Shown in pieces: positions 7,603-34,853 of a DNA stretch of 34,853 bases (position 1 is its first letter; every line of letters starts with the position of its first letter). The notes beneath the pieces are model-generated. The model was not told the origin of the DNA. It made no database searches and worked only from the letters and a program-made list of their open reading frames with translations. The DNA lies in IMG/VR virus record IMGVR_UViG_3300025070_000114, positions 1 to 34,853 of that record; one strand, given 5' to 3'. This stretch comes from a virus (taxonomy: Duplodnaviria > Caudoviricetes). The translations under genes were made by a program, and so were the position numbers.

Positions 7603-10548
7603 ATGCCTATTACTCAAGTAGAAACTCCAAATGGAGTAGTAGATGTTGAACATCCTGAAGGCACTCCAGACGCTCAGATCATTGAGTTTGTTGCTGCCTC
7701 TCAAGGAATACAGCCTACTACACAGACTCAAGCAGAAGCTCCTGACCCTGCTCGCAGTTTATTAGATTTACCTCTAGCATCTGAAAGAGGTATTGAAGAT
7801 TTCTCCGCGATGGAAAGGTTTGCTTATGAGTTTTCAAAATCAGGCAACCTCACCACAAATGTCTTAGCTTTAGCTGCGTCAGCAAGCCCTATTGGCATGT
7901 TTGCAGGCAGCGAGAAGTATGGATTATGGGCAAGCCCTACAGAGTTGTTTGGCGAGGGGTGGGGTAGCATGCCCGTAGATGAGCGCAGGCAAAGAATCCT
8001 AGAGTTTAAGGATGAGATGCTTCGCGAAGACTATCCCGAGCTTCACAGGCTTGCTGAAGAAGGAGGCGATACAGGTGTTTCAGGGTGGGTAGGAGCTTTC
8101 TTTAAGGGTGTTGCAGACCCATCATTAATACTCCCCGCGGGAAGAACTATAAAAAGCATATCTGCTTTAGGAGCTTTGTATGGTGGGGCGTATGAAGTTT
8201 CTCGGGGCTTATTAGAAGACGGAGAAATAGATACTGCTATGGCTGCGGCTACAGCGGCAGGAGGCGCTGTTCTTGGCGCAGGCGTATCTGTCGCCGCAAA
8301 AAAATTATTTCCTTTACACAAAAGCATTACAACAAACCGCAAAAAACCTAAAACAGAAAGTCAGGTTAAAAAAGCAAACGAGAAAGCTGAAGAACTCAAC
8401 AACCAAATGCTTGAGATTCAAGCAGAAGGAGGCTTGCAGCCAGATGCAAACATTCTTCTTGCAGCAGCAGAAAGAATTAAAATAAAACCCAAAGATTTGA
8501 AAAAGGTTATTGAGGACAAAACTGTTCCGTTTGAAGTGCAGCACCCAGAGATAGCTAAAACTCTTAAGTCTTACCAGAAGCAAACAAGGATAGGCAGGGT
8601 AATGGGGGCGGCAAGCGACATACTTGCTCCTATTGACGATAGAATTGGCTCTATTAGCAGACCTGTTCTTAAGGAAGTAAACGAGTACGACTTAAATTTA
8701 TTGCAACGTACAGCTCGCTATCAAGACTCAATAGAAGGCTTTGAAAAACTTGACGCAGCACTACCTAGCGAGGAGTTAAAGATTCAGTTTGAAGAATCTT
8801 TGCTGAACTATGAGTTTGACACAACACTTCCGCGAAGACTGTTGAAAGAAAATGGTGTTGAGTCTGTAAAATTAAACCTTACAGGAACGCAGGCAAGAAC
8901 TGTTGACGAGATATTTGACAGCGTTGATGAGACTCTCAAAGAAATTGGTTCAGAATGGAGTGAGTTGCGCGGAGAAAAGGTAACTTTGCGCGAGTTTTTC
9001 TTCCCTCGATCTGTTGCCGATATAGATGGGTTGTCAAAATACTTTGGTAAAGAAGCTCCTTCAGAGCTAGGAAAAATGTATGACATAAAAGCCAAGTCTC
9101 TTGGCTTTGCTTCTAGGTCAGAGCTGTCTCAGGATGAGATGTCTAAGGTGGCACTAGATTACTTTGAAGGAGTTCGCTACCAAGCAAAAGGCGGGAAAAA
9201 CAAAGGAAACGTACGTCAGTTTAAGAAGCGAAAAATAACTCAAGTAAACAGAGACATGATTCCGTATTACAAAAAATCTACTCAGACATTGGGGCAGTAT
9301 GTTCGCGAGATGGCTGAGAATATAGAAAACGCAAAATTATGGAGCAGGCTTGGCACAAAAGTTGTAGACCTTGATGATGTTGATCGCAACGAAAGTATTG
9401 CTCAGCTTATTTCCAAGAAAGTTGGAAGCGGAGAAATAGACACAGAAACCGCAGAAAGTCTTAGAGGCTTACTGGAAGCGAGGTTTGTTGGCGGCAAAAA
9501 AAGCATGAATGCAAATTTACAAGCCATCCGAAACAGTTCAAACATATTGTTGCTTGCTAACTTTCGTTCAGCCACCACACAGCTTGGAGATTTATTTACC
9601 AACCCATACAGATATGGAGCTAAAGCATCCCTTAAGTCTATCGCTCAAGTGGTTACTGGTCGCTCTGATATAGATGTAGATCAACTTGGGTTAGCAAAGA
9701 TTATCTCTACAGAATTTACCGGAGCAGGAAGAACTGCTGCATGGCTAGACAAGACCTTTGCTTTGTCTTTCTTTAGAGCTATAGATCGTTTTGGTAAAAA
9801 TGTTTCTTTGCAATCTGCGTACAACAAACACAAAGCTTTAGCCAAAACAGAGAAGGGAGTAAAAGAGTTACGCGAAGAGTACGGTGATTATCTTGGCGCT
9901 AGATTTGATAACTATATCCGCGACCTAAACGCAGGAGTTATTACGCCTGATGCAAAGCTTGTAAACTTTACTGAGATTGTAAAGATGCAGCCTTTAACCC
10001 CGACTCAAAAATCAAAAGTGGCACTTATGAATCCTAATTATGGGATTTTTTATATGCTAAAAACCTATGCGCTTAGGCATTTGTTTACGTTAAAAAATGA
10101 CATCGGCAAAGAAATAAATAAAGGCAACTATCTTGGCGCAGGAAGGAAACTTGCAACCTACATGGCGTTAGTAAATGGAGGCAACGCAACAATCAAAGAA
10201 GTTAAAAACTGGGAAGACGGGAAAGGCTTTGACCCTGACCGAGTGCCAGATCATTTCTATGATTCTTTGCTGAACTCTGTATTGTTATCAAGGTATGCAG
10301 TTGAAAACAGATGGCAAGAGAAAGATATTGTCGGTCTTGCTACAGATGCGGTTGCCCCTCCTCTTTCTGTGTTTAGCAATATCTCTAAAGACATCATGTC
10401 TTTTAATAAAGCATTGATTGAGGGAGAAGAGCTTCCTGTAAAATGGCTAAGAAATATCCCTGTTGCAGGACGAACAATATACAATATATTCTTTGGAGGA
10501 GCAGAGGAGTTCCTTGAAAGAGAGGCTAAACAAAAAGATAAAGACTAA
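7603..10548 (+). CDS. Large internal virion / ejection protein
   Basis: 981 aa, last gene of the structural arm, with Gly/Ala hydrophobic segments around aa 185-232. Confidence 0.6.
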   Translation: MPITQVETPNGVVDVEHPEGTPDAQIIEFVAASQGIQPTTQTQAEAPDPARSLLDLPLASERGIEDFSAMERFAYEFSKSGNLTTNVLALAASASPIGMFAGSEKYGLWASPTELFGEGWGSMPVDERRQRILEFKDEMLREDYPELHRLAEEGGDTGVSGWVGAFFKGVADPSLILPAGRTIKSISALGALYGGAYEVSRGLLEDGEIDTAMAAATAAGGAVLGAGVSVAAKKLFPLHKSITTNRKKPKTESQVKKANEKAEELNNQMLEIQAEGGLQPDANILLAAAERIKIKPKDLKKVIEDKTVPFEVQHPEIAKTLKSYQKQTRIGRVMGAASDILAPIDDRIGSISRPVLKEVNEYDLNLLQRTARYQDSIEGFEKLDAALPSEELKIQFEESLLNYEFDTTLPRRLLKENGVESVKLNLTGTQARTVDEIFDSVDETLKEIGSEWSELRGEKVTLREFFFPRSVADIDGLSKYFGKEAPSELGKMYDIKAKSLGFASRSELSQDEMSKVALDYFEGVRYQAKGGKNKGNVRQFKKRKITQVNRDMIPYYKKSTQTLGQYVREMAENIENAKLWSRLGTKVVDLDDVDRNESIAQLISKKVGSGEIDTETAESLRGLLEARFVGGKKSMNANLQAIRNSSNILLLANFRSATTQLGDLFTNPYRYGAKASLKSIAQVVTGRSDIDVDQLGLAKIISTEFTGAGRTAAWLDKTFALSFFRAIDRFGKNVSLQSAYNKHKALAKTEKGVKELREEYGDYLGARFDNYIRDLNAGVITPDAKLVNFTEIVKMQPLTPTQKSKVALMNPNYGIFYMLKTYALRHLFTLKNDIGKEINKGNYLGAGRKLATYMALVNGGNATIKEVKNWEDGKGFDPDRVPDHFYDSLLNSVLLSRYAVENRWQEKDIVGLATDAVAPPLSVFSNISKDIMSFNKALIEGEELPVKWLRNIPVAGRTIYNIFFGGAEEFLEREAKQKDKD

Positions 10549-10796
10549 CTCCTCGGCAAACGCCTCTCCTCCATAGTGGGGAGGGGCTTTCTTTTTAGCT
10601 CCTCCTCAATCAAGAACTCGCAGAACTGCTTGATCTTTCTTAAATCCTCGACTCCTCCCTTGTCCCTCCATCGAGAGATGTACTTAACAATAGCCCCCTC
10701 ACAGAACCCCAGTTGGTTAGCTAGGATATATTCCACAGGCTGTATCTTTAGTTTCTTGTAGTGGTCGCCACCTACTTGATGGTCTGTAGACTTCAT
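10545..10796 (-). CDS. DUF3310 family protein (T7 gp1.7-like nucleotide kinase domain)
   Basis: QVGGDHY..IQPVEYI...GFCEG..VKY.SRW..KGG.EDL.K signature. Confidence 0.85.
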   Translation of the reverse strand: MKSTDHQVGGDHYKKLKIQPVEYILANQLGFCEGAIVKYISRWRDKGGVEDLRKIKQFCEFLIEEELKRKPLPTMEERRLPRS

Positions 10797-11092
10797 ACGT
10801 CACTCTCTTTAATAAACACACCGTTAGGCTGCATCTTACCCTTGCGGTCTTTGATGTCGTCATAGGCTACCTGTAAACACTCCGCCAGGGTAGTCTCGTG
10901 CATCAGGGCTAAGTTATTTAAAACCACCAAGCAGTCGCCAATGTCATCCTTTACATCTCTTCCTTTCGCGATGTTGTCAGACAACTCCCCAACCTCTGAG
11001 ACTAGCTTTAATCCCTGAGCCTGTACGCTGCTGTACTTTAGTATCCCTCGCGTCTCACTCCACTCGGAGCAAAGTTTAATTAATCTGTTCAA
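10793..11092 (-). CDS. mazG: MazG-like nucleotide pyrophosphohydrolase
   Basis: KLVSEVGEL...DDIGDCLVVL (ExxE...DxxD) and AYDDIKDRKG. Confidence 0.85.
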   Translation of the reverse strand: MNRLIKLCSEWSETRGILKYSSVQAQGLKLVSEVGELSDNIAKGRDVKDDIGDCLVVLNNLALMHETTLAECLQVAYDDIKDRKGKMQPNGVFIKESDV

Positions 11093-11307
11093 TGTATTGC
11101 CTCATCTTGCAGTTCTGATAGTTCTAAGTATTCCATAAACTTTGCTTTCAGCTTGGGATGGCTATGAATAAACCCGCTGTAGTCCTCTAGCATAATCCCT
11201 ATTGAGCCTATGACGTTCTTGTCATGCCCCTCCGCTTCGTACAGCGCGTCAACCAACCAATCGCTGACCTCCTCCACGGATACAGGGTAGATTTCTATAG
11301 TCTTCAT
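11089..11307 (-). CDS. Hypothetical protein
   Basis: 72 aa, 4-nt overlaps with both neighbours. Confidence 0.7.
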   Translation of the reverse strand: MKTIEIYPVSVEEVSDWLVDALYEAEGHDKNVIGSIGIMLEDYSGFIHSHPKLKAKFMEYLELSELQDEAIH

Positions 11308-11777
11308 CTACACCTCCTTTTATAAAGGTCATTCATTGGACGTAAATGGCTCAAGTCTATATAGTGATTCGTCAAACCCCTGCCAAAATCTTTTGTTGGC
11401 GCAGCAAGAACTTCCGACCTCATAGCCCATCCAACAAAATCTATCATGCCATTTTCGTGCATTGCTGCCACATAAATGTCTGCTCGAACCTTTCCTTGCT
11501 CAACCAGAAGATTGTTTGCTCTTGATGTTTTGTCTGTAGTCTTTACATCAATGGTAAAGTTTAAAGGGATTGTAAAATCAAACCCCCCATCACCATTTAT
11601 TTTTTGCTCTAAATCAACAGAATGGCCGAGCAATAAAGCTAAGTACATTTCTCCCATCATACCCATAGGGTCTTGGTCTTTTACGAGAGCAGGTTGCTCT
11701 TCAATGGGGTTATGCAAATCCTTTCGGGCATTGCCGTGCGTCCTAGCGAAGACCTGTAGAGATTTGTAAAAATTCAT
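11304..11777 (-). CDS. Putative PD-(D/E)XK nuclease-fold protein
   Basis: E...GDGGFDF...IDVKT pattern. Confidence 0.5.
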   Translation of the reverse strand: MNFYKSLQVFARTHGNARKDLHNPIEEQPALVKDQDPMGMMGEMYLALLLGHSVDLEQKINGDGGFDFTIPLNFTIDVKTTDKTSRANNLLVEQGKVRADIYVAAMHENGMIDFVGWAMRSEVLAAPTKDFGRGLTNHYIDLSHLRPMNDLYKRRCR

Positions 11778-12238
11778 GCGACCCTCTTCTCGTGGTACTC
11801 AATTAGCTTAAGAAACTCCGCAAGGATTTCCTCGTAGTCTGCTTTGTATCTCTTGATAGGAGTAGACTTCTTGGCAATCATCTCCTCAACAAAGTCCCTG
11901 CCGTACATATCCTCCATGAACAGGGTGTACTCTTGAGCAGCAGACCCATGCTTCATGCCCCACATATTACAAGCAGGACACTGAGGGTGGACGTTTTCTA
12001 TCTCTAAAGACCAGTAAGAAGAGTTGCCTTTCGGGATGAAATGACCGCCTTGCATGTCTTTATAATGCTTAGTCACTCCGCAGGACACACAGGAGCAGTA
12101 TCCGTTATCGTCCGATGCTGCCAATCTGGCTAATTTTTGTACAGCTTTGTAGCACTCTTGTTTTAACTGAGCGGAAGTCTTGGTCTTGGGTTTAGATTTC
12201 CTTTTGACCCTGCGCTTCACGGCTCTAGTCATTTCCAA
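11774..12238 (-). CDS. ninG: NinG/Rap-like recombination endonuclease
   Basis: CVSCG...GGHFI...NVHPQCPACN zinc/HNH-like signature. Confidence 0.85.
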   Translation of the reverse strand: MEMTRAVKRRVKRKSKPKTKTSAQLKQECYKAVQKLARLAASDDNGYCSCVSCGVTKHYKDMQGGHFIPKGNSSYWSLEIENVHPQCPACNMWGMKHGSAAQEYTLFMEDMYGRDFVEEMIAKKSTPIKRYKADYEEILAEFLKLIEYHEKRVA

Positions 12239-12420
12239 TACCGCCCATCCTTGAGAGAGAGTAGGGTTTTCTCAGCCCTGATTTGAGTCTCTCTATCCAT
12301 CCGGTCATAGCGCAGCTTGATAAGAGCCTCGCTAAACTTTCTATTCGTAACAGGGTAGGTCTTCCTAGCCGCTGCTACATCCATCGGCATGTCATAATCG
12401 CCTTCGCTATTTACTGCCAT
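12229..12420 (-). CDS. Hypothetical protein
   Basis: 63 aa, overlaps both neighbours in the operon. Confidence 0.6.
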   Translation of the reverse strand: MAVNSEGDYDMPMDVAAARKTYPVTNRKFSEALIKLRYDRMDRETQIRAEKTLLSLKDGRYWK

Positions 12421-12589
12421 AAAGGCCGAGCCTCTTCGTGTAGTGTGAAGTGTACTTCCTGTGCAGCTCTATCTGTAAAGCCACTAAAGCATTGTATGTC
12501 TCCTTTACTTGTTTGTCTTCAATTTTATCCAAGCCAATTTGTAATTCATCAATGGCTTTGTGTATCACTTCCATCATGTCTGTACTCAT
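12407..12589 (-). CDS. Hypothetical protein
   Basis: 60 aa, GGGAG RBS. Confidence 0.65.
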   Translation of the reverse strand: MSTDMMEVIHKAIDELQIGLDKIEDKQVKETYNALVALQIELHRKYTSHYTKRLGLYGSK

Positions 12590-12692
12590 GGTTACTCCCG
12601 ATAAAAGATATGACGACCTATCTGCCGTCTAGTGCCAAGGCCGTCAACCCAATAAGGATTAACTTCCTCCCTGTGGTAGTAAACAGGCTATC

Positions 12693-12878
12693 TCAAGCAT
12701 CTCTCACCTCGCTCTTAAAGCCTACCTCAATGTGCTTATATCTTCGTACACCCTTACGGTACTTGGGCAAGGCGTAGAACTTGCCATGCTTCTCCCTAAC
12801 AATGTACTTGCGCTTCTCATCATTAGCGCAGAACACAGCCTCTTCGAGAGCGTCTTCCAAGTTATCGAAGGCAACCAT
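12693..12878 (-). CDS. Hypothetical protein
   Basis: 61 aa, GAGGTG RBS. Confidence 0.65.
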   Translation of the reverse strand: MVAFDNLEDALEEAVFCANDEKRKYIVREKHGKFYALPKYRKGVRRYKHIEVGFKSEVRDA

Positions 12879-12881
12879 GAT

Positions 12882-13316
12882 TCACCTCGCGGGAAACGGT
12901 ATGTAGACATTAAACTTCTCGCTCAGGTGCTTGCTTAGAACCTGATGCACCTTGTCGTAATCTTCTGTCCCCACGGTAGAGGTTGAGTCTGTGCCAGTTA
13001 CCGCTTCTTGCACAGGTTTCCATAGGTACTGTTTAACTAATTCTGTAGTCCAAGGAATCTCTGCCTCTTGCTTAAGGGTTTTCTTCATGTCATACCCTGC
13101 GTCATTCAAAGCCTCTGATAACATACGGCAGTAGACATGCAGTGCATTGTTCTGTTTGTGGGTTCTAGTCTTTCCTACCTTCCACTTCAAAGTCACATAG
13201 CCCTTCGTGTCGTACAGATGCTCTATATGCTTCTTGAACATATCCAAGCTATGCCTATTGTTGACGACCCAAAACTCTCCTTGATCTATAGGACTATCCA
13301 AGTTTTGCCACCTCAT
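12882..13316 (-). CDS. NinB-like protein (start uncertain)
   Basis: KTRTHKQNNALH...STST...PFP pattern resembles the NinB family; near ninG. Confidence 0.55.
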   Translation of the reverse strand: MRWQNLDSPIDQGEFWVVNNRHSLDMFKKHIEHLYDTKGYVTLKWKVGKTRTHKQNNALHVYCRMLSEALNDAGYDMKKTLKQEAEIPWTTELVKQYLWKPVQEAVTGTDSTSTVGTEDYDKVHQVLSKHLSEKFNVYIPFPAR

Positions 13317-13488
13317 CCATAGTCATGCCTAGCTGCTCGCAAACATTTCTAAATGTAGACACTAAAACATTCTGCCGCGAGAGTAGGTGAGAATAGTTAG
13401 CATGGCTCATACCTATAGCATCAGCCACGGTCTTACGAAGTATCCCAGTCTTCTCGTGGGCTTTCTTAATACAATTCCCCGTGTGCAT
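13294..13488 (-). CDS. Cro/XRE-type helix-turn-helix protein
   Basis: VADAIGMSHANYSHLL...VCEQLG; AGGAG RBS; no peptidase domain. Confidence 0.75.
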   Translation of the reverse strand: MHTGNCIKKAHEKTGILRKTVADAIGMSHANYSHLLSRQNVLVSTFRNVCEQLGMTMDEVAKLG

Positions 13489-13499
13489 TAACTTCTCCT

Positions 13500-13520
13500 A
13501 AAAAGGGGGCTTGCGCCCCC
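13500..13520 (-). terminator. Intrinsic terminator after the SSB-like gene
   Basis: Minus strand GGGGGC-GCAA-GCCCCC-UUUUU. Confidence 0.85.
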
Positions 13521-13526
13521 GTCAAA

Positions 13527-13754
13527 CTAAAAAGGAATATCTTCGCTTGATACTGTTTCTTGCTTCTCTTGAGGAACGAAGTCATCCACTGAGATGCTAA
13601 GGAAAGGATTGCCTGCCTTGGACATTTTAATCCAACCTGCAATCTTGAACTCAGAACCCTTGTAGTTGAAATTACCTTTGTAATCAGGCGCTTTCTCGTT
13701 AGTCTTATCAGTCTGCTTGAACAGCACACCACGGTTAGTATTGTCGTAATCCAT
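13527..13754 (-). CDS. Small ssDNA-binding protein-like (DUF736-like)
   Basis: APDYKG...IAGW...FLSISV core and acidic SSB-type tail EDIPF; follows ERF and the exonuclease. Confidence 0.7.
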   Translation of the reverse strand: MDYDNTNRGVLFKQTDKTNEKAPDYKGNFNYKGSEFKIAGWIKMSKAGNPFLSISVDDFVPQEKQETVSSEDIPF

Positions 13755-13762
13755 AAGTCCTC

Positions 13763-14362
13763 CTATTGGAAAAATTTTTCTACATTCTCTTCGATCAGTT
13801 TCACAGCTTTAGAAACACATGCTTCTAACTCTGCAATGTAATCCTCGTCTCGCTCTACACGAACGATCAGAGGTTTCATGTTGGGATGGTAGGACATAAA
13901 ATCCCACCACTCCCGTCCGGTTATCCATAGACAACCCATGACCTGCTGCTTGTACTTGGAGGGGAGTTTGTCCCCTCTTAGGTACTCAACGTGTGTGGCA
14001 GGAGCGGGGCATTTAATCTCTAATCCCCCGTCCTCGCCTATCAGTCCATCAGGACTTGCACCTGCCTCGAGGGTGTCATGTAGGCAGAACCCTACCTGCT
14101 GCACCTCAGAGCCAGTAATAAACTCATACAGCTGTCTCGCGTCAGGCTCTAACTCTGTCCCTCTAATCATGTGTTCGTTCTGGTAGAAGGGCGTAGTCTC
14201 TCCGGTAAGCTTCTCTGCCACCAGTTGATTAATATACGAGTCAGCCTGAGTAGACCACTTGCCTTGGGTCGTAATGATCTTGGCGTACATTGACGCTGAA
14301 GGAATGCCTAGCCTCGAGGCTAACCACTCGTCTGTACCCTGCTCACAGTTAATGCAGCGCAT
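13763..14362 (-). CDS. YqaJ / lambda-exonuclease family
   Basis: QGTDEWLASRLG, RGTELEP, GASPDGLI, LEIKCP, Y.QQVMG; likely start ATG 14362. Confidence 0.92.
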   Translation of the reverse strand: MRCINCEQGTDEWLASRLGIPSASMYAKIITTQGKWSTQADSYINQLVAEKLTGETTPFYQNEHMIRGTELEPDARQLYEFITGSEVQQVGFCLHDTLEAGASPDGLIGEDGGLEIKCPAPATHVEYLRGDKLPSKYKQQVMGCLWITGREWWDFMSYHPNMKPLIVRVERDEDYIAELEACVSKAVKLIEENVEKFFQ

Positions 14363-14558
14363 CTTTAGCCTCCAAGATTTCAAACTCAATCAAGGACACA
14401 ATTTTAGAAACTTTGTCCGAAATATCAGAGTTGAGGATTGCAGACACTTCACGTTTTAGCTCGCGGTTCTTTTCTAGCTCAAGCTGCTCCTCCTCATCAA
14501 GAGCCTGTTCCTGAGCGGAGAGATAGCGGTTTAGGTCTACCATTACTGGGTCGCTCAT
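14349..14558 (-). CDS. Hypothetical coiled-coil protein
   Basis: 69 aa, GGAGG RBS, overlaps neighbours. Confidence 0.7.
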   Translation of the reverse strand: MSDPVMVDLNRYLSAQEQALDEEEQLELEKNRELKREVSAILNSDISDKVSKIVSLIEFEILEAKDALH

Positions 14559-15133
14559 AAAGCCTCCGCTTTCTTATCAAGGATTTCCTTGGCCATATCA
14601 AACTTGTTCGCATCTAATTCAGATACAGACTCGCACTTAAAAGTTTTGCAGAACCTTTGTAGGTCTGACTCTGTTTTCTCAATCAGATCAGAGATAACTT
14701 TGGCCTGAGCCTTGGTGATAGTTTTAGCTTGTGCTATAGGCGCGGCCTGTGTCGCAGCGTTACCATCGTCATCCTCTGAGGGAATCCCTGCGATAGACTG
14801 TAGTGCGTAGCGTCTCGCGTAGGTGATAGCTGAACCCGCTGCCTGTGCATCCATCTTCCCCAAGGGGATGAAGTAGTCCTGCTCTAACCACTCGCCTGAC
14901 GAGTGCATGAGGCGGGTAGTAACACCGACTGAGTTTTCTCCAGTAACAGGGAATTGCACATAGCTAAGTCCATGCTTGGCAAAGGGAGGCTTGACTGCAT
15001 CGATGACATCCCCCAAGTCGGCGTATTTAGATTTGAAGAATGGGTTGGAAGCTGATTTCGTTGCCGCACCCATATCGCCCTGTGCCGCCGCCATTGCTCC
15101 GGCTAGGTTCTTAATTGATTCTGACTGCTTCAT
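14555..15133 (-). CDS. erf: ERF-family single-strand annealing protein
   Basis: NPFFKSKYADL and GSAITYARRYAL...EDDDG; likely start 15133 after AAGGGG. Confidence 0.92.
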   Translation of the reverse strand: MKQSESIKNLAGAMAAAQGDMGAATKSASNPFFKSKYADLGDVIDAVKPPFAKHGLSYVQFPVTGENSVGVTTRLMHSSGEWLEQDYFIPLGKMDAQAAGSAITYARRYALQSIAGIPSEDDDGNAATQAAPIAQAKTITKAQAKVISDLIEKTESDLQRFCKTFKCESVSELDANKFDMAKEILDKKAEAL

Positions 15134-15522
15134 ACTGTTGCCCCTTGTGTTTCCCATAGGTGAATGATCTGTGCATCTTTTGCGTAATCTTTCTCGAACT
15201 TCTTCAAAGCTGACACAGCTATCTCCACGTTCTGATCTAATACATACCGCGCATAGTCGCGCAGTGTAGTGTTAGCCTGTTCGTGAAACATAGCTATGTC
15301 GGAGATGTTGCCTGAGTGTAGCGATTTGATTAGGTCAACCGCGAATGTCTCGCAGTAGGCCTGTGTGTGTAGCGCCTCAATCAGGAAGTCGAACCCTGAC
15401 TCGCGGACTACGATTGATACGAATTCATCCACGAGGGAATCAGGCAGGTCTAGCTGACCTTCGTGAATCCAAGTGAATACATCTTCGCGGTTTAGAAATG
15501 ACTCGATGGTTTGTATTTTCAT
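15130..15522 (-). CDS. Hypothetical protein
   Basis: ORF with GAGGGG RBS before ATG 15522. Confidence 0.7.
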   Translation of the reverse strand: MKIQTIESFLNREDVFTWIHEGQLDLPDSLVDEFVSIVVRESGFDFLIEALHTQAYCETFAVDLIKSLHSGNISDIAMFHEQANTTLRDYARYVLDQNVEIAVSALKKFEKDYAKDAQIIHLWETQGATV

Positions 15523-15551
15523 AATATCCCCTCCCAAGGAATAACTGTACT

Positions 15552-16523
15552 CTAAAACATAAACTTGTCGCGGTCAACATTATCATCAAAATAAAAATGC
15601 ACCGGCCTATCTTCCTGCTCGGTTACCTGTAAGCTGTTGGAATGAAAGTAAAAATTGTATCTTCCCTCCCAACTACCATGCCTTTGTTTCGCTACCACGA
15701 TGTACTGGTCGTAACTTTTTTCTAAGTATTCCTGCTGCTTTTCGTCTAGCTCTACCAGTTTGGATAGCTCTTTCAGCTTGTGTCTTTTCTGATTGGCGGC
15801 AATCACTAGCACGTTGTCCGCGAGGTCTGAGATAGTAGACGCGCCCCGAATGTCATGCTTATCACCTATGTAATCATCCCCTGCTTGCTGAGGCTTTCGT
15901 AGGTGAGCGATGAGCATTACATGAATACCCAGAGTCTTACACGCATGCTGTAGTCGGTTGATGAAATCAGTCTCACCGTTGCGGTCGTCAAACTTAATCC
16001 CGCACTTGGTAAGGGAGTCTATGACCATAAACTTAACCCCTAACTCCTTCGCGCAGTAGTGGACTACCGCGAGGATTCTGGCGCTCTCCACTGTGTCCAG
16101 TTGGTCGTAAATTACTATGTTCTTGTCCACAAAATCCGCGAACTGGTTGATAAAATCCTCAGTAGGCTCGCCGTCCTTAGCCCCCGCAGACTGTAGGCAC
16201 ATCCGCCATAGTGTTTCGGAGGGTTTCATCTCGAGTGACGCAATGCAAACCTTGGAATGCTTCGCGAGCTTCAAGCAAAGCTGTCCAACAAGAATCGATT
16301 TCTTCGCGCCATTAGCTCCTGCCACGATGGTTAGCTCGCCCTCCCTCAAGCGAAACGTGTCGTATGTCTTAGGCCAAGGCAGCTTAGCTCCCCATATTTT
16401 CTCGCCCTTCGATCTTTCAATCACATCTTCCCGCCAGTGTCCGGCAGATTTAACTTGCTGCGCCTCCATCATCGAGGTGAGCTCGATGTATTTGTCTAGC
16501 TCCAGTCCTTCGGGTATTTTCAC
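15552..16523 (-). CDS. DnaB / T7 gp4-like SF4 replicative helicase
   Basis: Walker A-like AGANGAKKS, SLEM, MVIDSL, LIAHLRK, DIRGAS.I.DLADNV, KQRHG. Confidence 0.9.
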   Translation of the reverse strand: MKIPEGLELDKYIELTSMMEAQQVKSAGHWREDVIERSKGEKIWGAKLPWPKTYDTFRLREGELTIVAGANGAKKSILVGQLCLKLAKHSKVCIASLEMKPSETLWRMCLQSAGAKDGEPTEDFINQFADFVDKNIVIYDQLDTVESARILAVVHYCAKELGVKFMVIDSLTKCGIKFDDRNGETDFINRLQHACKTLGIHVMLIAHLRKPQQAGDDYIGDKHDIRGASTISDLADNVLVIAANQKRHKLKELSKLVELDEKQQEYLEKSYDQYIVVAKQRHGSWEGRYNFYFHSNSLQVTEQEDRPVHFYFDDNVDRDKFMF

Positions 16524-17128
16524 AGCTCAATCTCCCACGAGGCGGTCGGCTTTTCTTTTGCTAACTGTTCCTTCCTGCGGCCTTCCCATGTTCTAACTGT
16601 AGCCTTCCAAGATTTCATTTTATTTGTCCCCACAATCCATCCCCTTGATTCGTACCAGTCCACAAATCTCTCAGCATCTAAACCATTCCCTCGCTCCTCA
16701 CAGTAGGCCTTCACCTGCTCCACTGTTGGTGGCTTAAATATATTTGTTTCTTGTTTATTGTTTAGTTGTTGTCGCTTTGTTTGTCGTTTGCTTGTCGTTT
16801 GCTTGTCGCTGTCCTGATACTGGCAGTAGTTAGTTATTGATATGATTGAGTATTTACTGAAATTCTGCTTGTCAATTTGGTGACAGTTTTCGAACCGTTT
16901 GATTGTCGTTCTTAAACGCCTCACTGATATGCCTAGTCTGGCACTCACTGAGTTAAGGCCGAAAACTATCTGTCCTCTCTTTAAATTCAATGGCTTACCG
17001 TTAAATGAGACGGTCTTATCCTCCACCGCAGCACCCATCAGGAGGTAGAGCCAAAGCTTCAGCGCCTCGGGGTCGTCCCAAACAAACGAGTCTTGTATCT
17101 TGCGGTCTAATCTAATCCACCCGATCAT
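16520..17128 (-). CDS. Replication initiator (lambda O / replisome organiser-like)
   Basis: GWIRLDRKI, LKRGQ, ISITNYCQYQ, FKPPTVEQV..YC, MKSWKATVRTWE; internal iterons; precedes the helicase. Confidence 0.85.
   Translation of the reverse strand: MIGWIRLDRKIQDSFVWDDPEALKLWLYLLMGAAVEDKTVSFNGKPLNLKRGQIVFGLNSVSARLGISVRRLRTTIKRFENCHQIDKQNFSKYSIISITNYCQYQDSDKQTTSKRQTKRQQLNNKQETNIFKPPTVEQVKAYCEERGNGLDAERFVDWYESRGWIVGTNKMKSWKATVRTWEGRRKEQLAKEKPTASWEIEL
16734..16812. promoter_or_regulatory. Putative replication origin: four iterons plus AT-rich segment
   Basis: TTGTCG(T/C)T at 16769, 16781, 16792 and 16803 (11-12 bp period) next to AT-rich 16734-16768. Confidence 0.75.
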
Positions 17129-17517
17129 ATCTCAACCCCTGCCGCATCTAGCACGGCCTGAGCCTTATAGATTGCCTTGCGGTCTTCAGGGGTAGGGTTT
17201 AGATTCCCCTCGCTTGCCCATACCTGCACCAATTCCATCAGGCATTTAGCTGAGTCTATCTCCTCGCGGGTAGCCTTGTTAAACTCCGGCTTATACCCGT
17301 CCTCGGGGTAAATATCTGGCCACGATAATGACGCAGCCGATAGAATCACCTCTGCGGTACATCCTGCGAAACAGTGAATAAGAATCTTACCGTTGTCTAA
17401 GTGTTTGATACTTAAAGAATTAGACCCGTCATCGTGGGCAGGGCATTTCGCCATTGCCTTGTCGCCAGATTGCCTGACATCCTCGAGCCTTGATAATACT
17501 TTGCTATAGTCTGACAT
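17125..17517 (-). CDS. Stand-alone primase-type zinc-finger protein
   Basis: CPAHDD..SLSI...IHCFAGC; only 130 aa, no TOPRIM domain. Confidence 0.75.
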   Translation of the reverse strand: MSDYSKVLSRLEDVRQSGDKAMAKCPAHDDGSNSLSIKHLDNGKILIHCFAGCTAEVILSAASLSWPDIYPEDGYKPEFNKATREEIDSAKCLMELVQVWASEGNLNPTPEDRKAIYKAQAVLDAAGVEI

Positions 17518-17597
17518 GATTTTCCCTTTGTGTTTTCAAAGGGATAGGGTATTCTACGCATAGCCGCGCAGTTTCCCCTCCCCTTGTGTCTGCGTGG

Positions 17598-18206
17598 TTA
17601 GCCCCCTTCGGGGGGCGTTTCTAACAATTCACCCCAACGGGTAAGCCCTGCATACTCTAGCCTTTTCGGATTTCGCATTTTCCTTAAGGCCTTGCCGTAT
17701 ATTTGCCTCACCCTCTCCTTACTCACCCCGTACACATTGCCTATTGCCTCCCATTTATGTTCCTCCCCCTCGAAACCGAGCCGTAGCGATACGACCTCCG
17801 CCTCTCTTTTGGTTAGCATCCCCAACATACTGCCTACTGCCTCGCGCTTTGCCCCTATCTCCATAATTTGGGCAGGGTCTAGCGTGTCCTCCTCGAGGCG
17901 CACTAGCTCGTTAGCGTTTGCCTGTATAGTTTTTTTGTTGGTCTTTAGCGGCTCGATTATCTGAGCCTCGGGGTATAATTCGTGCGGCATGAGATTAAAA
18001 AAATCACATAGCCTCATAAAACACTTACGATACTCCCCGCGAAAATCGTACACGCTTTCCTGCAAGTTTAAATATCTGCAAGCCTGAGTATAAGTAATCC
18101 CCGCCTGCCTTGATAACTCAGCAGCGGAAGCAATCCCCTTCCGATCCATAGCACTAGCTAATAGATTATTTTTAACCTTTATCTCTACCCTATAATCCTT
18201 CATCAA
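17598..18206 (-). CDS. HTH plus sigma70 region 4 fusion protein
   Basis: C-terminal LTKREAEVVSLRLG...IGNVYGVSKERVRQIYGKALRKMRNP resembles RpoD region 4; N-terminal AELSRQAGITY HTH. Confidence 0.8.
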   Translation of the reverse strand: MMKDYRVEIKVKNNLLASAMDRKGIASAAELSRQAGITYTQACRYLNLQESVYDFRGEYRKCFMRLCDFFNLMPHELYPEAQIIEPLKTNKKTIQANANELVRLEEDTLDPAQIMEIGAKREAVGSMLGMLTKREAEVVSLRLGFEGEEHKWEAIGNVYGVSKERVRQIYGKALRKMRNPKRLEYAGLTRWGELLETPPEGG

Positions 18207-18309
18207 ACCCTCCCCTCGCTCAGGCCTTCACAGCGGCGATCTGAGCGATGTTAATTATACCCCTTGTGTTGGTATTAGTTTCCCATTTAAATCGCTTACA
18301 CGCGAGCTG

Positions 18310-18531
18310 TTAAGCCTTCACGATGGATATTTCAGCTTGCATGTAGGCTGTCGCAATATCCTCACACTCTTTTTGGAGTAATCGCATACCATTATCGCGG
18401 TATTCTCTCTCTACCAGAAAGGATTTATCCTTTGCATGCTCGCGAATGTAAGCTTGCTTCGCTTGCTCGGCTTGCTCCTCGGTCTGATAACCCAAACCGA
18501 ATAAGCCGTTCTTTCCCTTTAATCTGTACAT
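18310..18531 (-). CDS. Hypothetical early protein
   Basis: 73 aa, overlaps the upstream ORF. Confidence 0.65.
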   Translation of the reverse strand: MYRLKGKNGLFGLGYQTEEQAEQAKQAYIREHAKDKSFLVEREYRDNGMRLLQKECEDIATAYMQAEISIVKA

Positions 18532-18722
18532 ACTATGCCTAGCCCCTTATAGTCTGGATGTCCCGCCTCCCCTTCACTGGTTCGGCTACCACCTGTAGCG
18601 TACCACAGGCAAACCGACTCGGTATAGTATTCCTCGGCGTTTATTTCATCCTCGTAATCCCATTGCCCCGCGAGCAGTAATAAACCCGCGAGAGTTAGCA
18701 TTGCCAGTGATTCCTTAAGCAT
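18519..18722 (-). CDS. Small membrane-anchored or exported early protein
   Basis: GGAGG RBS before ATG 18722; hydrophobic LAMLTLAGLLLLAG followed by an acidic domain with two Cys. Confidence 0.65.
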   Translation of the reverse strand: MLKESLAMLTLAGLLLLAGQWDYEDEINAEEYYTESVCLWYATGGSRTSEGEAGHPDYKGLGIVCTD

Positions 18723-18897
18723 GATCGTCCTCCAGTTTTGGGTAAACATTGAGCGCGTACTCCTGCGCCTCCTCTATTTCCTTCGGTGTGCATAGCTGCG
18801 CTAGGTCATCGACTAGCTGTAAACTATCCGCCAGTCTGTGTTTTGGCGCTGTCAACGCGAGCATAAGCGCGTTAGTTAAGGCTTGTTGGTGATTCAT
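18715..18897 (-). CDS. Hypothetical early protein
   Basis: 60 aa, ATGA overlap with the upstream gene. Confidence 0.65.
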   Translation of the reverse strand: MNHQQALTNALMLALTAPKHRLADSLQLVDDLAQLCTPKEIEEAQEYALNVYPKLEDDHA

Positions 18898-19259
18898 TTT
18901 ACTTGCTCCGGCAATTCATCAAAGACCGCATAAGCTTCGCCGAACGATTCCGCGATCTTGGTAAACTTTTCCGCATAAGTTTCGCCATAAACCTCTGGCT
19001 TATCCCAAAACCCTGCGCCGTGGCCGTTGCGAGTAAGCCAGAAATCATGGCCCGCTTGCTCTATATTGTCCGGTGATAGGTAACACACAATGCGGCTATA
19101 GAATGCCAGACAATCGATTATAGACTCGCGGAGGAATTCCTCGTCTATTTCTGCGCCAATTGGCGGCTGCCCCTCCTCGCCCAATTCTGTAAAGTCTACC
19201 GCTTCAAGGTACGCGGCGATAAATTGAGACTCTTTCTTATTGGTTTCTATTATGTGCAT
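18894..19259 (-). CDS. Conserved phage hypothetical protein
   Basis: AGHDFWLTRNGHGAGFWD motif; AAGGGGA RBS. Confidence 0.75.
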   Translation of the reverse strand: MHIIETNKKESQFIAAYLEAVDFTELGEEGQPPIGAEIDEEFLRESIIDCLAFYSRIVCYLSPDNIEQAGHDFWLTRNGHGAGFWDKPEVYGETYAEKFTKIAESFGEAYAVFDELPEQVK

Positions 19260-19260
19260 T

Positions 19261-19404
19261 TTATTTTCCCCTTAAGTGATTGATTAGCGATAGGCATAAT
19301 TCTATATCGCGAGCAGCCCCTTCCTGTCCGGCTTCTGTTAAATCTGGAAGTAGCGTTGTTTCTAGCCATGCGGTATAGGCATTGATTTCGGATTCAGTCC
19401 ACAT
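19261..19404 (-). CDS. 47 aa early protein not in the ORF track
   Basis: MWTESEINAYTAWLETTLLPDLTEAGQEGAARDIELCLSLINHLRGK; GAGGGGA RBS; fills the gap exactly. Confidence 0.7.
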   Translation of the reverse strand: MWTESEINAYTAWLETTLLPDLTEAGQEGAARDIELCLSLINHLRGK

Positions 19405-19437
19405 AAAATTCCCCTCAAGTGTTTGATTGTGTTATGA

Positions 19438-19698
19438 TTAGCTGTACTTTATATGTTCTGCTATTTGCTCATCTAGTAACGGTTTGACCGATTCGGATAT
19501 AAATTTTGCCCCGTCTGGCGTTTCATTAGGTAAGGCCGCCAATAGCCCCTTGAGCGCTTCAGAGTGACTAACAGTCATATAGGCCGCCAATTCTGCATAG
19601 TGACATAGAGTCTCGTATAGCCCCTCATCATTGTTTAGCCATAAGGCCACGTTCCAATCATTCTTATTTGCATAACCTTTGAATGTTTCTTTTGTCAT
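19438..19698 (-). CDS. Conserved phage hypothetical protein
   Basis: GYAN..DWNVALWLNNDEGLY motif; AAGGGGA RBS. Confidence 0.75.
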   Translation of the reverse strand: MTKETFKGYANKNDWNVALWLNNDEGLYETLCHYAELAAYMTVSHSEALKGLLAALPNETPDGAKFISESVKPLLDEQIAEHIKYS

Positions 19699-19744
19699 TG
19701 TCTTTCCCCTTGTAAGTAATGCCCCGCCGAAACGGGGCGATTGA

Positions 19745-19960
19745 TTAGATCATGCTATCGAGTCTTTCTTCCAATTCCGCTTTGCTCGAGCAATAGATTT
19801 CATTAAGCCAGTCCGCCCCTTCAATCCAATAGCCGATGTCCCTACCGACTCGATCTATTTCTATCGTCAATCCTAGCTTTGCCGCTTTGCGTCTTAGCTT
19901 GGCAAGTGATATAGGGTTGCTTTGGTTTAGCGTGTTACTTAAAAGCTTCTCGAGTTTCAT
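19745..19960 (-). CDS. Hypothetical early protein
   Basis: 71 aa, GAGGGGA RBS. Confidence 0.7.
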   Translation of the reverse strand: MKLEKLLSNTLNQSNPISLAKLRRKAAKLGLTIEIDRVGRDIGYWIEGADWLNEIYCSSKAELEERLDSMI

Positions 19961-20001
19961 GATATTCCCCTCGGTAATGCGCCCCGTAGGGCGCGTATTG
20001 T

Positions 20002-20241
20002 TTAAAGTCTATTATCTTGCATAGCTTCCGCTAGTGTTTCGCAATAATTACCGCTTTCAAAGAATGGCGCATCGCCCGATCTAGAAGGATCAATTGCTCG
20101 CCAGACAACGAACGGGTGTAGCGAGTGTTCGCGCTTTACTATTGCCATCGCGGATGGATAGCTAAACGAGTCACCGTTCGAATTCTTAACTAGGTCAATT
20201 AACTGGCCGTTTACTTGTTCTAATGCTTTGCTTAAATCCAT
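20002..20241 (-). CDS. First gene of the early operon, hypothetical
   Basis: AAGGGGA RBS before ATG 20241 (MDLSKALE...). Confidence 0.7.
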   Translation of the reverse strand: MDLSKALEQVNGQLIDLVKNSNGDSFSYPSAMAIVKREHSLHPFVVWRAIDPSRSGDAPFFESGNYCETLAEAMQDNRL

Positions 20242-20297
20242 TGCGTGATTCCCCTTAAGTGATGCGCTGCACCGTTGCCGCGCTTTCGTAAAGTACA

Positions 20298-20315
20298 TTG
20301 CATGCGCCGTGCCAA
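20298..20315 (-). promoter_or_regulatory. Sigma54 (RpoN) -24/-12 promoter
   Basis: Minus strand TTGGCACGGCGCATGCAA: TGGCACG-N4-ATGC, exact GG-N10-GC spacing, about 60 nt upstream of the first early gene. Confidence 0.75.
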
Positions 20316-20338
20316 GTCCTGCCAACAATCGAAAACAA

Positions 20339-20368
20339 TTTTAAAACTTCAATGATTACAACGCGTTG
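20339..20368. promoter_or_regulatory. IHF-like binding site
   Basis: TTTTAAAA tract, then TTACAACGCGTTG (2 mismatches to WATCAANNNNTTR), between the sigma54 promoter and upstream repeats. Confidence 0.35.
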
Positions 20369-20393
20369 CGGATGAAAATAAATTCACCGGATT

Positions 20394-20422
20394 GTTTTAC
20401 TGTATAAATACACAGTGTTCAA
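20394..20422 (-). promoter_or_regulatory. Sigma70-like promoter with LexA box in the spacer
   Basis: Minus strand TTGAAC-N17-TAAAAC; the -10 lacks its final T. Confidence 0.45.
20398..20417. promoter_or_regulatory. LexA (SOS) box
   Basis: TACTGTATAAATACACAGTG = CTGT-N8-ACAG with AT-rich spacer. Confidence 0.8.
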
Positions 20423-20482
20423 AAGTGTTACTGTGTTACCGTAAAGTGTTACCGTGTTACCGTGAAAGTGTTACCGGTAACA
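20422..20482. repeat. Phased TGTTAC array
   Basis: TGTTAC at 20426, 20434, 20447, 20455 and 20469; inverted GTAACA at 20477; unit AAAGTGTTACYGTGTTACCGT with 21-22 bp period. Confidence 0.9.
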
Positions 20483-20535
20483 GATTGGGTTGGGGGTTGG
20501 GTGTAGGGTATTGGCTGCCTATCAATCCCTCACAT

Positions 20536-20573
20536 TTAGCGAATCTCGCCAATAGTTAGCGAATCTCGCCAAT
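20536..20573. repeat. 18-bp direct repeat x2 (TTAGCGAATCTCGCCAAT)
   Basis: Copies at 20536 and 20556, each containing a GCGA-ATC-TCGC dyad. Confidence 0.9.
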
Positions 20574-20804
20574 GTGTAGCGTATTTGACGAAGGGGGTCG
20601 CGGATTGGGGACGGGGAGGGGCGTGCGTGCGTGCGAATCATTATAGTTGCCCCCCAAATTTGCAGCAGGCAAAATTAAAAAAAAGCCAGAATTAGCATTA
20701 ACTCCCGCGCACGTAATATCTAGCGTTGTACAAAAATTAGACAATAATTAAAACTCATGTTTCAATGCAGTTAATTAATCTTAGATAATAGATACGAACC
20801 TGTT

Positions 20805-21167
20805 ATGAAAGACAACACAGATAAGCCTAAACGCAGAGTAGGTAGACCCCGCAAGGATGAGCTAATCCCACCCAAGAGGGGTAGGGGTAGACCCAAGGGC
20901 GACCACTCAGCTATGCAGGAGATGAAGCAGAGGTTCTTGGCTAGAAGAGACACCCCTGCGGTAATCAACTCTATTTACAAGGCGGCTATGGATGACGACC
21001 ACAAGAACCAAGCTGCTGCGTGGAAGCTGATTATAGATAGGGTCTTGCCTGTCAGTGCATTCGACAAGGACAAGATGGGCGGCAAGCCTACGGTCAACAT
21101 CACTATCTCAGGCGTAGGAGAAACTCCTGTGATAGACGGAGAGGTTATAGACCATGAACCTGATTGA
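20805..21167 (+). CDS. terS: Terminase small subunit-like protein with AT-hook motifs
   Basis: First late gene, upstream of TerL; VGRPRK and RGRPKG motifs; AAWKLIIDRVLP and a beta-strand C-terminus. Confidence 0.65.
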   Translation: MKDNTDKPKRRVGRPRKDELIPPKRGRGRPKGDHSAMQEMKQRFLARRDTPAVINSIYKAAMDDDHKNQAAAWKLIIDRVLPVSAFDKDKMGGKPTVNITISGVGETPVIDGEVIDHEPD

Positions 21168-21573
21168 TCTACTGGTTAAGCATGAGGGCTTACGGACTAA
21201 GCCGTATGAGGATACGACCGGACACCTAAGTATTGGTGTTGGGAGAAACTTAGACTCATTGGGGTTATCCCACGATGAAATCTACTATATGCTCAAGAAC
21301 GACATCAGAAGGTGTGAGGAAGAACTGGATAACACCTTCCGGTGGTACAAGTATCTAGATCAAGTGCGTAAGGATGCTATGGTATCATTATGCTTCAATC
21401 TTGGTATTACTAGACTGAGGAAGTTCAAACTGGCTCTTAAGTCTATGGAGACTGACGACTTCGAGGAAGCTGCCGATGAATTCTTAGATTCTCTGTGGGC
21501 GACTCAGGTTGGTCAACGGGCTGTAGAGATAACTTATATGATTCGATTTGGAGAATACTATGCCAATGGTTAA
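21154..21573 (+). CDS. Endolysin, T4-type lysozyme (GH24)
   Basis: HEGLRTKPYEDTTGHLSIGVGRNL, FNLG, DSLWATQVGQRA. Confidence 0.9.
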   Translation: MNLIDLLVKHEGLRTKPYEDTTGHLSIGVGRNLDSLGLSHDEIYYMLKNDIRRCEEELDNTFRWYKYLDQVRKDAMVSLCFNLGITRLRKFKLALKSMETDDFEEAADEFLDSLWATQVGQRAVEITYMIRFGEYYANG

Positions 21574-34606: not shown

Positions 34607-34853
34607 TGCATAAGGTCGCCGCAAAGCTGTCACTAGACGCTTACAAGGACGACATGGTTGGCGCTATTAAGGTAGAGAATAAGATGACCTCTACTGTGGC
34701 GTACGTTAAGTGTACGCCTGAGTGTGACTACGTTGTCTTTCGCGGCACTAACTCTTTAGGGGATTGGCTGTTTAATCTGTCTGCCTTCCCCGCGTACTAC
34801 AACAGGCGATGGACGCATGGTGGCTTTGCTCTAGCACACAAGTCTGTATGGAA
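34606..34853 (+). CDS. Class 3 lipase, 5' part (continues at base 151 on circularisation)
   Basis: TAATG-coupled start; MHKVAAKLSLDAY...YVVFRGTNSLGDW...HGGF, in frame with 2-595. Confidence 0.88.
   Translation, partial: MHKVAAKLSLDAYKDDMVGAIKVENKMTSTVAYVKCTPECDYVVFRGTNSLGDWLFNLSAFPAYYNRRWTHGGFALAHKSVW
34704..34853 (+). repeat. Terminal direct repeat, right copy
   Basis: Matches 1-150 except at 34830, 34833 and 34836. Confidence 0.97.

Follow-up and report, generated by a model that had tools for sequence, protein, structure and literature searches.

A candidate crcZ-type sigma54 promoter with CbrB-like subsites and a LexA box ahead of the early genes of an uncultured phage

Promoters dependent on sigma54 remain silent until an activator that uses ATP opens them. 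The relationship between the timing of phage lysis and the state of the host has long been discussed, as pseudolysogeny in starved ocean bacteria.

In the part of the account of Pseudomonas putida drawn on here (PMC6296734), CbrB recognizes a forward subsite, F1 (TGTTAC), and two reverse subsites, R1 and R2 (GTAACA), 20-25 bp apart, at promoters that also carry an IHF site and a GG-N10-GC element. CbrB occupies the F and R subsites on one face of the helix and, with the DNA bent by IHF, opens the sigma54 closed complex; it depends only weakly on phosphorylation. Promoters of the crcZ type change several-fold with the carbon source and need both CbrB and IHF, with changes of 4.3- and 20.6-fold for PP2810 (PMC6296734, same part).

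On the phage side, a sigma54-like phage promoter, that of YuA, and the control of phage genes by host LexA, Spo0A or CtrA are already known from the sources drawn on in part. As at the locus described below, the promoter of Pseudomonas phage YuA is sigma54-like and served by host sigma54 (PMC10914365); the excerpted account names neither an enhancer protein nor upstream sites, whereas at the present locus the type of enhancer can be recognized and is conserved over many uncultured phages. Host LexA (GIL01 and others), Spo0A (phi29) and CtrA, the latter described as 'lytic deferment', govern phage genes according to the excerpts of PMC9437464 and PMC4551915. Literal-term searches of the open-access literature found no case of CbrB, or of any other host enhancer protein identified by name, acting at a phage promoter.

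The window, that is, the whole stretch of 34,853 nt that was analysed, is a whole phage genome, the words of which are present in marine metagenomes, several studies containing at least half of them. The candidate promoter region sits between the minus-strand and the plus-strand arm (Table 1), and the AT-hook protein of the latter is read as TerS by its position. The ribosome-binding block of the predicted leader (AAGGGGAA) also precedes other early genes. A Sigma54_activat domain was found neither in this genome, in agreement with the earlier claim that it encodes no enhancer-binding protein, nor in four other module-bearing phage records (five in total), and no tyrosine integrase was found in five complete phage records. 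The intergenic region was free of sites in a scan for sigma70 promoters, which over 17400-21200 found 5 against 6.2 expected, and Rfam gave no match in 19200-20900. CrcZ was not matched in the phage, in a search whose controls gave no match either.

Table 1. Features of the candidate promoter region and of the flanking arms (positions in the window)
Feature	Position	Strand	Remarks
Minus-strand early arm	10545-20241	-	small early ORFs, sigma70-region-4 protein, DnaD-like initiator, helicase, Erf, YqaJ, NinG
First early ORF, 79 aa	20002..20241	-	no match in family searches; slot occupied by many different genes in relatives
Predicted leader, 47 nt	20242..20288	-	ribosome-binding site AAGGGGAA at 20256-20249; read from sequence
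sigma54 -24/-12 element, TGGCACGGCGCATGCA	20299..20314	-	exact GG-N10-GC spacing; predicted start near 20288
22-bp insertion 1 (about two helical turns)	20318..20339	.	relative to the short form and crcZ promoters, by alignment
IHF-like site, weak, with A/T tract	20340..20368	-	lies 54 bp before TGGCAC, versus 32 bp in hosts and in relatives of the short form
22-bp insertion 2, with GGTGAATTTATTTTCATCC	20372..20393	.	identical in the window, L004 and L009
LexA (SOS) box CTGT-N8-ACAG, TACTGTATAAATACACAGTG	20398..20417	.	between IHF site and enhancer array
CbrB-type enhancer array	20422..20483	.	TGTTAC/GTAACA hexamers; binding predicted from sequence
Imperfect 17-bp palindrome TTAGCGAATCTCGCCAA	20536..20572	.	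two copies 20 bp apart; only in some module-bearing relatives
Plus-strand arm	from 20805	+	AT-hook protein, lysozyme, TerL, portal, capsid

Other features were observed along the genome. Iteron-like 11-bp repeats and the best IHF site of the genome (22.9 bits) lie at 16776-16998, inside the gene of the DnaD-like initiator, where a replication origin is likely. The protein encoded at 17598-18206 (minus strand) combines a weak Cro/C1-type HTH with a sigma70 region 4; it is present in G002 and G004 and absent from G001, G003 and G005. Short GC-rich hairpins, possibly processing or stability elements, occur between early genes at 19721-19740, 19977-19996 and about 17600-17616; the first two stand immediately before ribosome-binding sites, with no T-run on the coding strand. 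A G-rich run followed by ATAGTTGCCCCCCAAATTTGCAGCAGG and an A-tract (20607-20686) is the top-conserved intergenic stretch across all 15 aligned sequences, has looser versions in distant relatives and, standing before TerS, may be a signal for packaging or for the terminus. At 34704 the opening 50 bases of the window appear again, as would fit a circular or permuted assembly, although the 150-nt overlap (34704-34853) is incompletely identical.

The sequence-only reading of this DNA had placed a sigma54 element, TGGCACG-GCGC-ATGCA with GG-N10-GC spacing, on the minus strand, and this element is present at 20314-20299. RpoN scoring, which had been suggested as a check, made it the best site in the genome, with 19.5 bits versus 5.2 for the runner-up in a profile trained on 52 host promoters. 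TGGCAC-N6-TGC stands upstream of the first early gene and points at it, that is, toward the early arm. Chance tests used 300 second-order Markov simulated genomes, in which the pattern TGGCACG-N5-TGCW appeared 0.02 times per genome and in 6 of the 300. A population variant carried 26 substitutions in 178 bp, with 20302, 20303, 20305 and 20307 changed, yet TGGCAC and GC were kept. Relatives likewise share the -24/-12 core but differ freely in its spacer and in the gene that comes first downstream, and in most modules a ribosome-binding site and a gene lay about 60-75 bp downstream of TGGCAC.

The array upstream had been described as five TGTTAC and one GTAACA phased at 21-22 bp. The hexamers are as described (TGTTAC at 20426, 20434, 20447, 20455 and 20469; GTAACA at 20477), but they are phased as two series of 21-22 bp that interleave with an offset of 8 bp and end in the palindrome TGTTACCGGTAACA. 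These six hexamers occupy 57 bp, 138-194 nt upstream of the predicted start, and the maximum in the same 300 simulated genomes was 3 per 60 bp. Read on the transcribed strand and measured upstream from TGGCAC, the array has its single F subsite (TGTTAC) at 168 bp and its five R subsites (GTAACA) at 160, 146, 138, 125 and 117 bp. The order F1-R1-R2 with F distal and steps of 20-25 bp is found in F 168, R 146 and R 125, with steps of 22 and 21 bp. For the IHF-like element that had been claimed, an A/T-tract site exists at the expected place, but it is weak: the best match in 20245-20500 has two mismatches, no exact WATCARN4TTR is present there, and the score of 8.5 bits ranks ninth in the genome. 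Across 25 modules the IHF score exceeded 11 bits at 31-32 bp in 8 and was negative in 10, with a strong element in several relatives and a degenerate one in others. The second insertion contains TGAAAATAAATTCA, one mismatch from what we take to be an ArgR-type box, and the 17-bp palindromes on the other side of the array are possibly the site of a second regulator.

When the distances upstream of TGGCAC were compared, six host crcZ promoters had F1 at 123-125, R1 at 102-104 and R2 at 80-82 bp, with IHF at 32 bp in five of them. A short form found in phage relatives has F at 124, R at 116, 102, 94, 81 and 73, a LexA box at 57-58 and IHF at 32 bp, and the more distant L080/L089 group (TerL 79% in L080) has F at 123, R at 104 and 80 and IHF at 32 bp. 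The crcZ distances (about 124/103/81) are therefore those of the short form and of the L080/L089 group, whereas the window is shifted by 44 bp, or four turns. In the alignment, these two forms are colinear with the crcZ promoters and the window differs by the two 22-bp insertions. In a slide test against the host position profile, the register of the short form and of L080/L089 ranked within the top 1-3 of 91 shifts, and the flipped orientation scored 0.06-0.31 versus 1.2-1.3 for the observed one. The array of the window matched the host positions only after removal of 44-45 bp (or 36), and the best fit of L066, L107, L104 and L185 was 8-23 bp away from them. The claim of a sigma54 promoter with a CbrB-like array is supported by the short form, which equals the crcZ promoters in distance and orientation.

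The arrangement is like that of Pseudomonas crcZ, crcY and PP2810, as far as the excerpted accounts go (PMC6296734, PMC8871633), in having F-R-R subsites at 20-25 bp, an IHF-like site and GG-N10-GC, with the same distances in the short form. Unlike crcZ, the phage promoter heads protein-coding early genes and not an sRNA, and has three extra subsites; the window is in addition 44 bp longer, with a weak IHF site. A LexA box is inserted in the phage, and none was present in the host loci inspected for it.

This LexA box had been overlooked by the sequence-only reading. It has three mismatches to what we take to be the E. coli consensus, and none of the 300 simulated genomes had a site within three mismatches of it. 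The box was present in 38 of the 65 distinct modules, as 11 sequence variants with a varying spacer, and absent from 27. Boxes like that of the phage were found in three of the four host lexA upstream regions examined, so that a CTGT-N8-ACAG of host type lies within the promoter, and the recN upstream regions of four host loci showed no convincing LexA box. Four of 25 modules contain boxes that match the NtrC consensus (PMC4987338): L104, L110 and L131 have them 82 bp upstream, L080 and L131 at 50 bp downstream. This is reminiscent of the overlap of CbrB and NtrC at hut promoters in the excerpted account (PMC8871633). Other repeated motifs fill the same region in L080 (2650-2710), L021, L107 (2310-2410), L193, L194, L006, L007, L012, L029 and L031. 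Presumably, these repeats resemble Fur, Zur and TetR-family sites and multiple LexA boxes.

Conservation was followed in 40 TerS loci, of which the 14 with 77-100% identity and at least 620 nt upstream were compared. Promoter and array were both present in 8 of the 14, two of these near-identical to the window, and both absent in 6; neither was ever found alone. The -24/-12 element and the boxes, whose conservation in relatives the earlier reading had proposed as a check, are thus kept together while the spacer and the downstream gene change. When viral sequences were scanned for a sigma54 element with one subsite 60-80 bp ahead of it, 62 stretches were returned, 51 of them distinct, which comprised 30 short-form modules, 15 modules of other layouts and 6 chance matches in coding DNA. 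Some of the other layouts belonged to phages with TerL 55-56% identical or without a family marker nearby. Over all phage loci there were 65 distinct modules, a set that was gathered partly by its motifs and shares common ancestry and therefore shows spread, not frequency; because of that ancestry the module counts are not independent either. The absence of the LexA box from 27 of the 65 modules and of the whole module from close relatives makes the module optional.

A strong sigma54 site lay within 300 bp of 24 of the 40 distinct arrays, versus 4.7% of 300 background windows. GTTAC arrays without a sigma54 site were found in family members L022, L025, L026, L027 and L040 and at the ends of primase genes in unrelated phages; therefore, the hexamer is not diagnostic by itself, whereas the geometry is. 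In those five members (L022, 1091-1147), a small membrane-protein-like ORF follows the TGTTAC/GTAACA arrays, which are found past the G-rich element toward the late genes and lack any sigma54 site within 300 bp. In L050 (2490-2760), L062 and L102, which are unrelated AT-rich phages, GTGTTACC arrays end primase-like genes and look origin-like, the hexamer being employed there in another context. The early ORFs 18519-18749 and 18715-18897 were present in three of three module-bearing and none of two module-free genomes; linkage explains this tracking, and the product of either ORF could conceivably be a phage cofactor.

Of 401 genomes in the crcZ-bearing GTDB order, by inference Pseudomonadales, 359 were found to have the CbrB C-terminal domain, among them assemblies as small as 1.3-1.7 Mb. 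A phylum-wide sample of 151 genomes gave 11 with the domain, every one a member of this order. The 56 cbrB loci analysed were the 6 of crcZ, the 30 best-scoring and 20 from hand-picked small genomes. A sigma54 promoter was located downstream at 52 of these 56, with R at 79-82 in 43, R at 100-104 in 18 and F at 122-126 in 20. The exact palindrome of the phage stands between cbrB and pcnB in two small genomes (47-49% GC), and the cbrB-pcnB promoter of L341 has F at 120, R at 112, 80 and 67 and IHF at 32 bp. rpoN was found in four of five small genomes tested. In host genomes L246-L305, L341 and L342, a sigma54 promoter bearing CbrB subsites and a AANAANAA-rich transcript come after cbrB; this arrangement, common across the order, suggests that CrcZ-like RNAs not yet annotated exist in other families than Pseudomonadaceae. 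Regulators of the CbrB type, together with promoters like that of crcZ, thus reach well beyond Pseudomonadaceae, contrary to a statement in the part of PMC8871633 drawn on here.

As CbrB-type regulators are spread over the whole order, the host need not be Pseudomonas. The earlier proposal that a CbrAB-like host activator is borrowed is supported by the CbrB-type promoter but loosened as to the host. TerL matches in GTDB contigs, considered as a clue to the host, fell in six bins of unrelated taxa and were read as mis-binned phage contigs. All cultured phages were less than 60% identical for TerL, capsid and helicase, and blastn of the promoter region gave no match.

With the motifs observed in this order, orientation and spacing, conserved in relatives and matching host crcZ promoters, and with neither an activator nor a tyrosine integrase found in the phage records searched, we consider it moderately probable that the early arm is headed by a crcZ-type sigma54 promoter likely activated by host CbrB and likely repressed by host LexA. 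That such a promoter would gate infection on carbon status, and not merely be strong, is the least certain step. It might have been captured for its strength in hosts that are nearly always carbon-limited, CbrB then being an always-on booster and LexA only tuning the level. CbrB in P. putida barely depends on phosphorylation, which would suit such a use, whereas the several-fold variation of crcZ-type promoters with carbon source and their need for CbrB and IHF would not (PMC6296734, in part). In its favour, the additional subsites point to selection for strength, the module can be swapped and is missing from close relatives, and the five complete records yielded no tyrosine integrase with which a long silent phase could be maintained. 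Against it, the LexA box, constant at 57-58 bp, and the NtrC boxes of other lineages contribute control and not strength; we regard capture for strength as unlikely. Still less probable, and in our view very doubtful, is that the site serves as a decoy bank, amplified phage DNA soaking up host CbrB, sigma54, LexA and other regulators and rewiring the host with little use of the promoter. It is true that varied sites resembling those of host regulators accumulate here in relatives, among them Fur-like repeats and, in L193 and L194, three or four LexA boxes, and that arrays without a promoter exist, but the fixed orientation toward the early arm, the ribosome-binding site and gene that most modules have downstream of TGGCAC and the in-phase spacing are needs of a promoter and not of a decoy.

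The sigma54 promoter could also be real and the array bound by something other than CbrB, either a sugar-acid repressor of GntR type (LacI family) acting at the palindrome or one of the phage's own proteins (TerS, the replication initiator or the sigma-like protein), with another enhancer protein, such as PspF, as the activator; this we judge improbable as a whole. TGTTACCGGTAACA resembles an operator of the GntR (LacI family) kind. Exact copies were present in 17 of the 251 host genomes (control 8); at 10 of the 17 host loci they precede genes of gluconate-permease or TRAP type, as their identity is read from sequence, so that a second binder is possible. The host sites are mostly single palindromes, however, none with a downstream sigma54 match, the palindrome is also present in host cbrB-pcnB promoters, and 14 of the 51 scan matches (11 plus L400 and similar) lose the exact palindrome yet keep the R subsites. 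PspF would be favoured by the 17-bp repeats, which equal its published consensus at 11 of 16 positions by eye; that consensus, however, matched none of five evaluable pspA promoters at three mismatches or fewer (14 of the 19 loci not being evaluable), and no more than 19 of 201 genomes were found to have PspF. As for phage proteins, the existence of arrays without sigma54 sites is compatible with another binder. TerS binding, which the earlier reading had itself raised, is unlikely because TerS is identical over the aligned length in L009, which has the array, and L010, which has none; on this ground a reading of the array as TerS packaging-site repeats was rejected. A role as replication origin bound by the initiator is unlikely with the iteron-like repeats and best IHF site inside the rep gene, 3.4 kb away, as is the sigma-like protein as a required partner, its gene being absent from module-bearing G003.

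Under the preferred reading, a crcZ-type promoter under host CbrB and LexA, host CbrB would load onto the array, the extra R subsites strengthening its loading, IHF would bend the DNA, and sigma54 polymerase would open near 20288 and transcribe the early arm. LexA, placed between IHF and the first subsite, would block looping until its RecA-triggered cleavage, and the two 22-bp insertions of the window would preserve helical phase. Early transcription would therefore depend on both the carbon and the DNA-damage status of the host. As in the phages governed by LexA, Spo0A or CtrA, the promoter has sites for host global regulators, LexA among them; unlike those cases, the activator is a sigma54 enhancer-binding regulator of carbon metabolism joined with LexA or NtrC sites on one promoter, no tyrosine integrase was found here, and deferment is a proposal only.

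Since sigma54 promoters are silent without an ATP-using activator, a phage with its first genes behind one cedes the start of infection to host signalling. As a tentative proposal, with a good chance of being wrong, an abundant, non-integrating family of marine phages lacking a switch of its own may carry swappable CbrB-, NtrC-, LexA- and Fur-like sites (for carbon, nitrogen, DNA damage and iron) on a captured crcZ-type sigma54 promoter, the injected genome staying silent until the nutrient and stress state of the host is right, as a nutrient-logic form of lytic deferment. If true, this would provide a mechanism, testable at the level of sequence, that links the timing of marine phage lysis to the carbon, nitrogen and damage state of the host, and the module would predict the host order for many uncultured phages.
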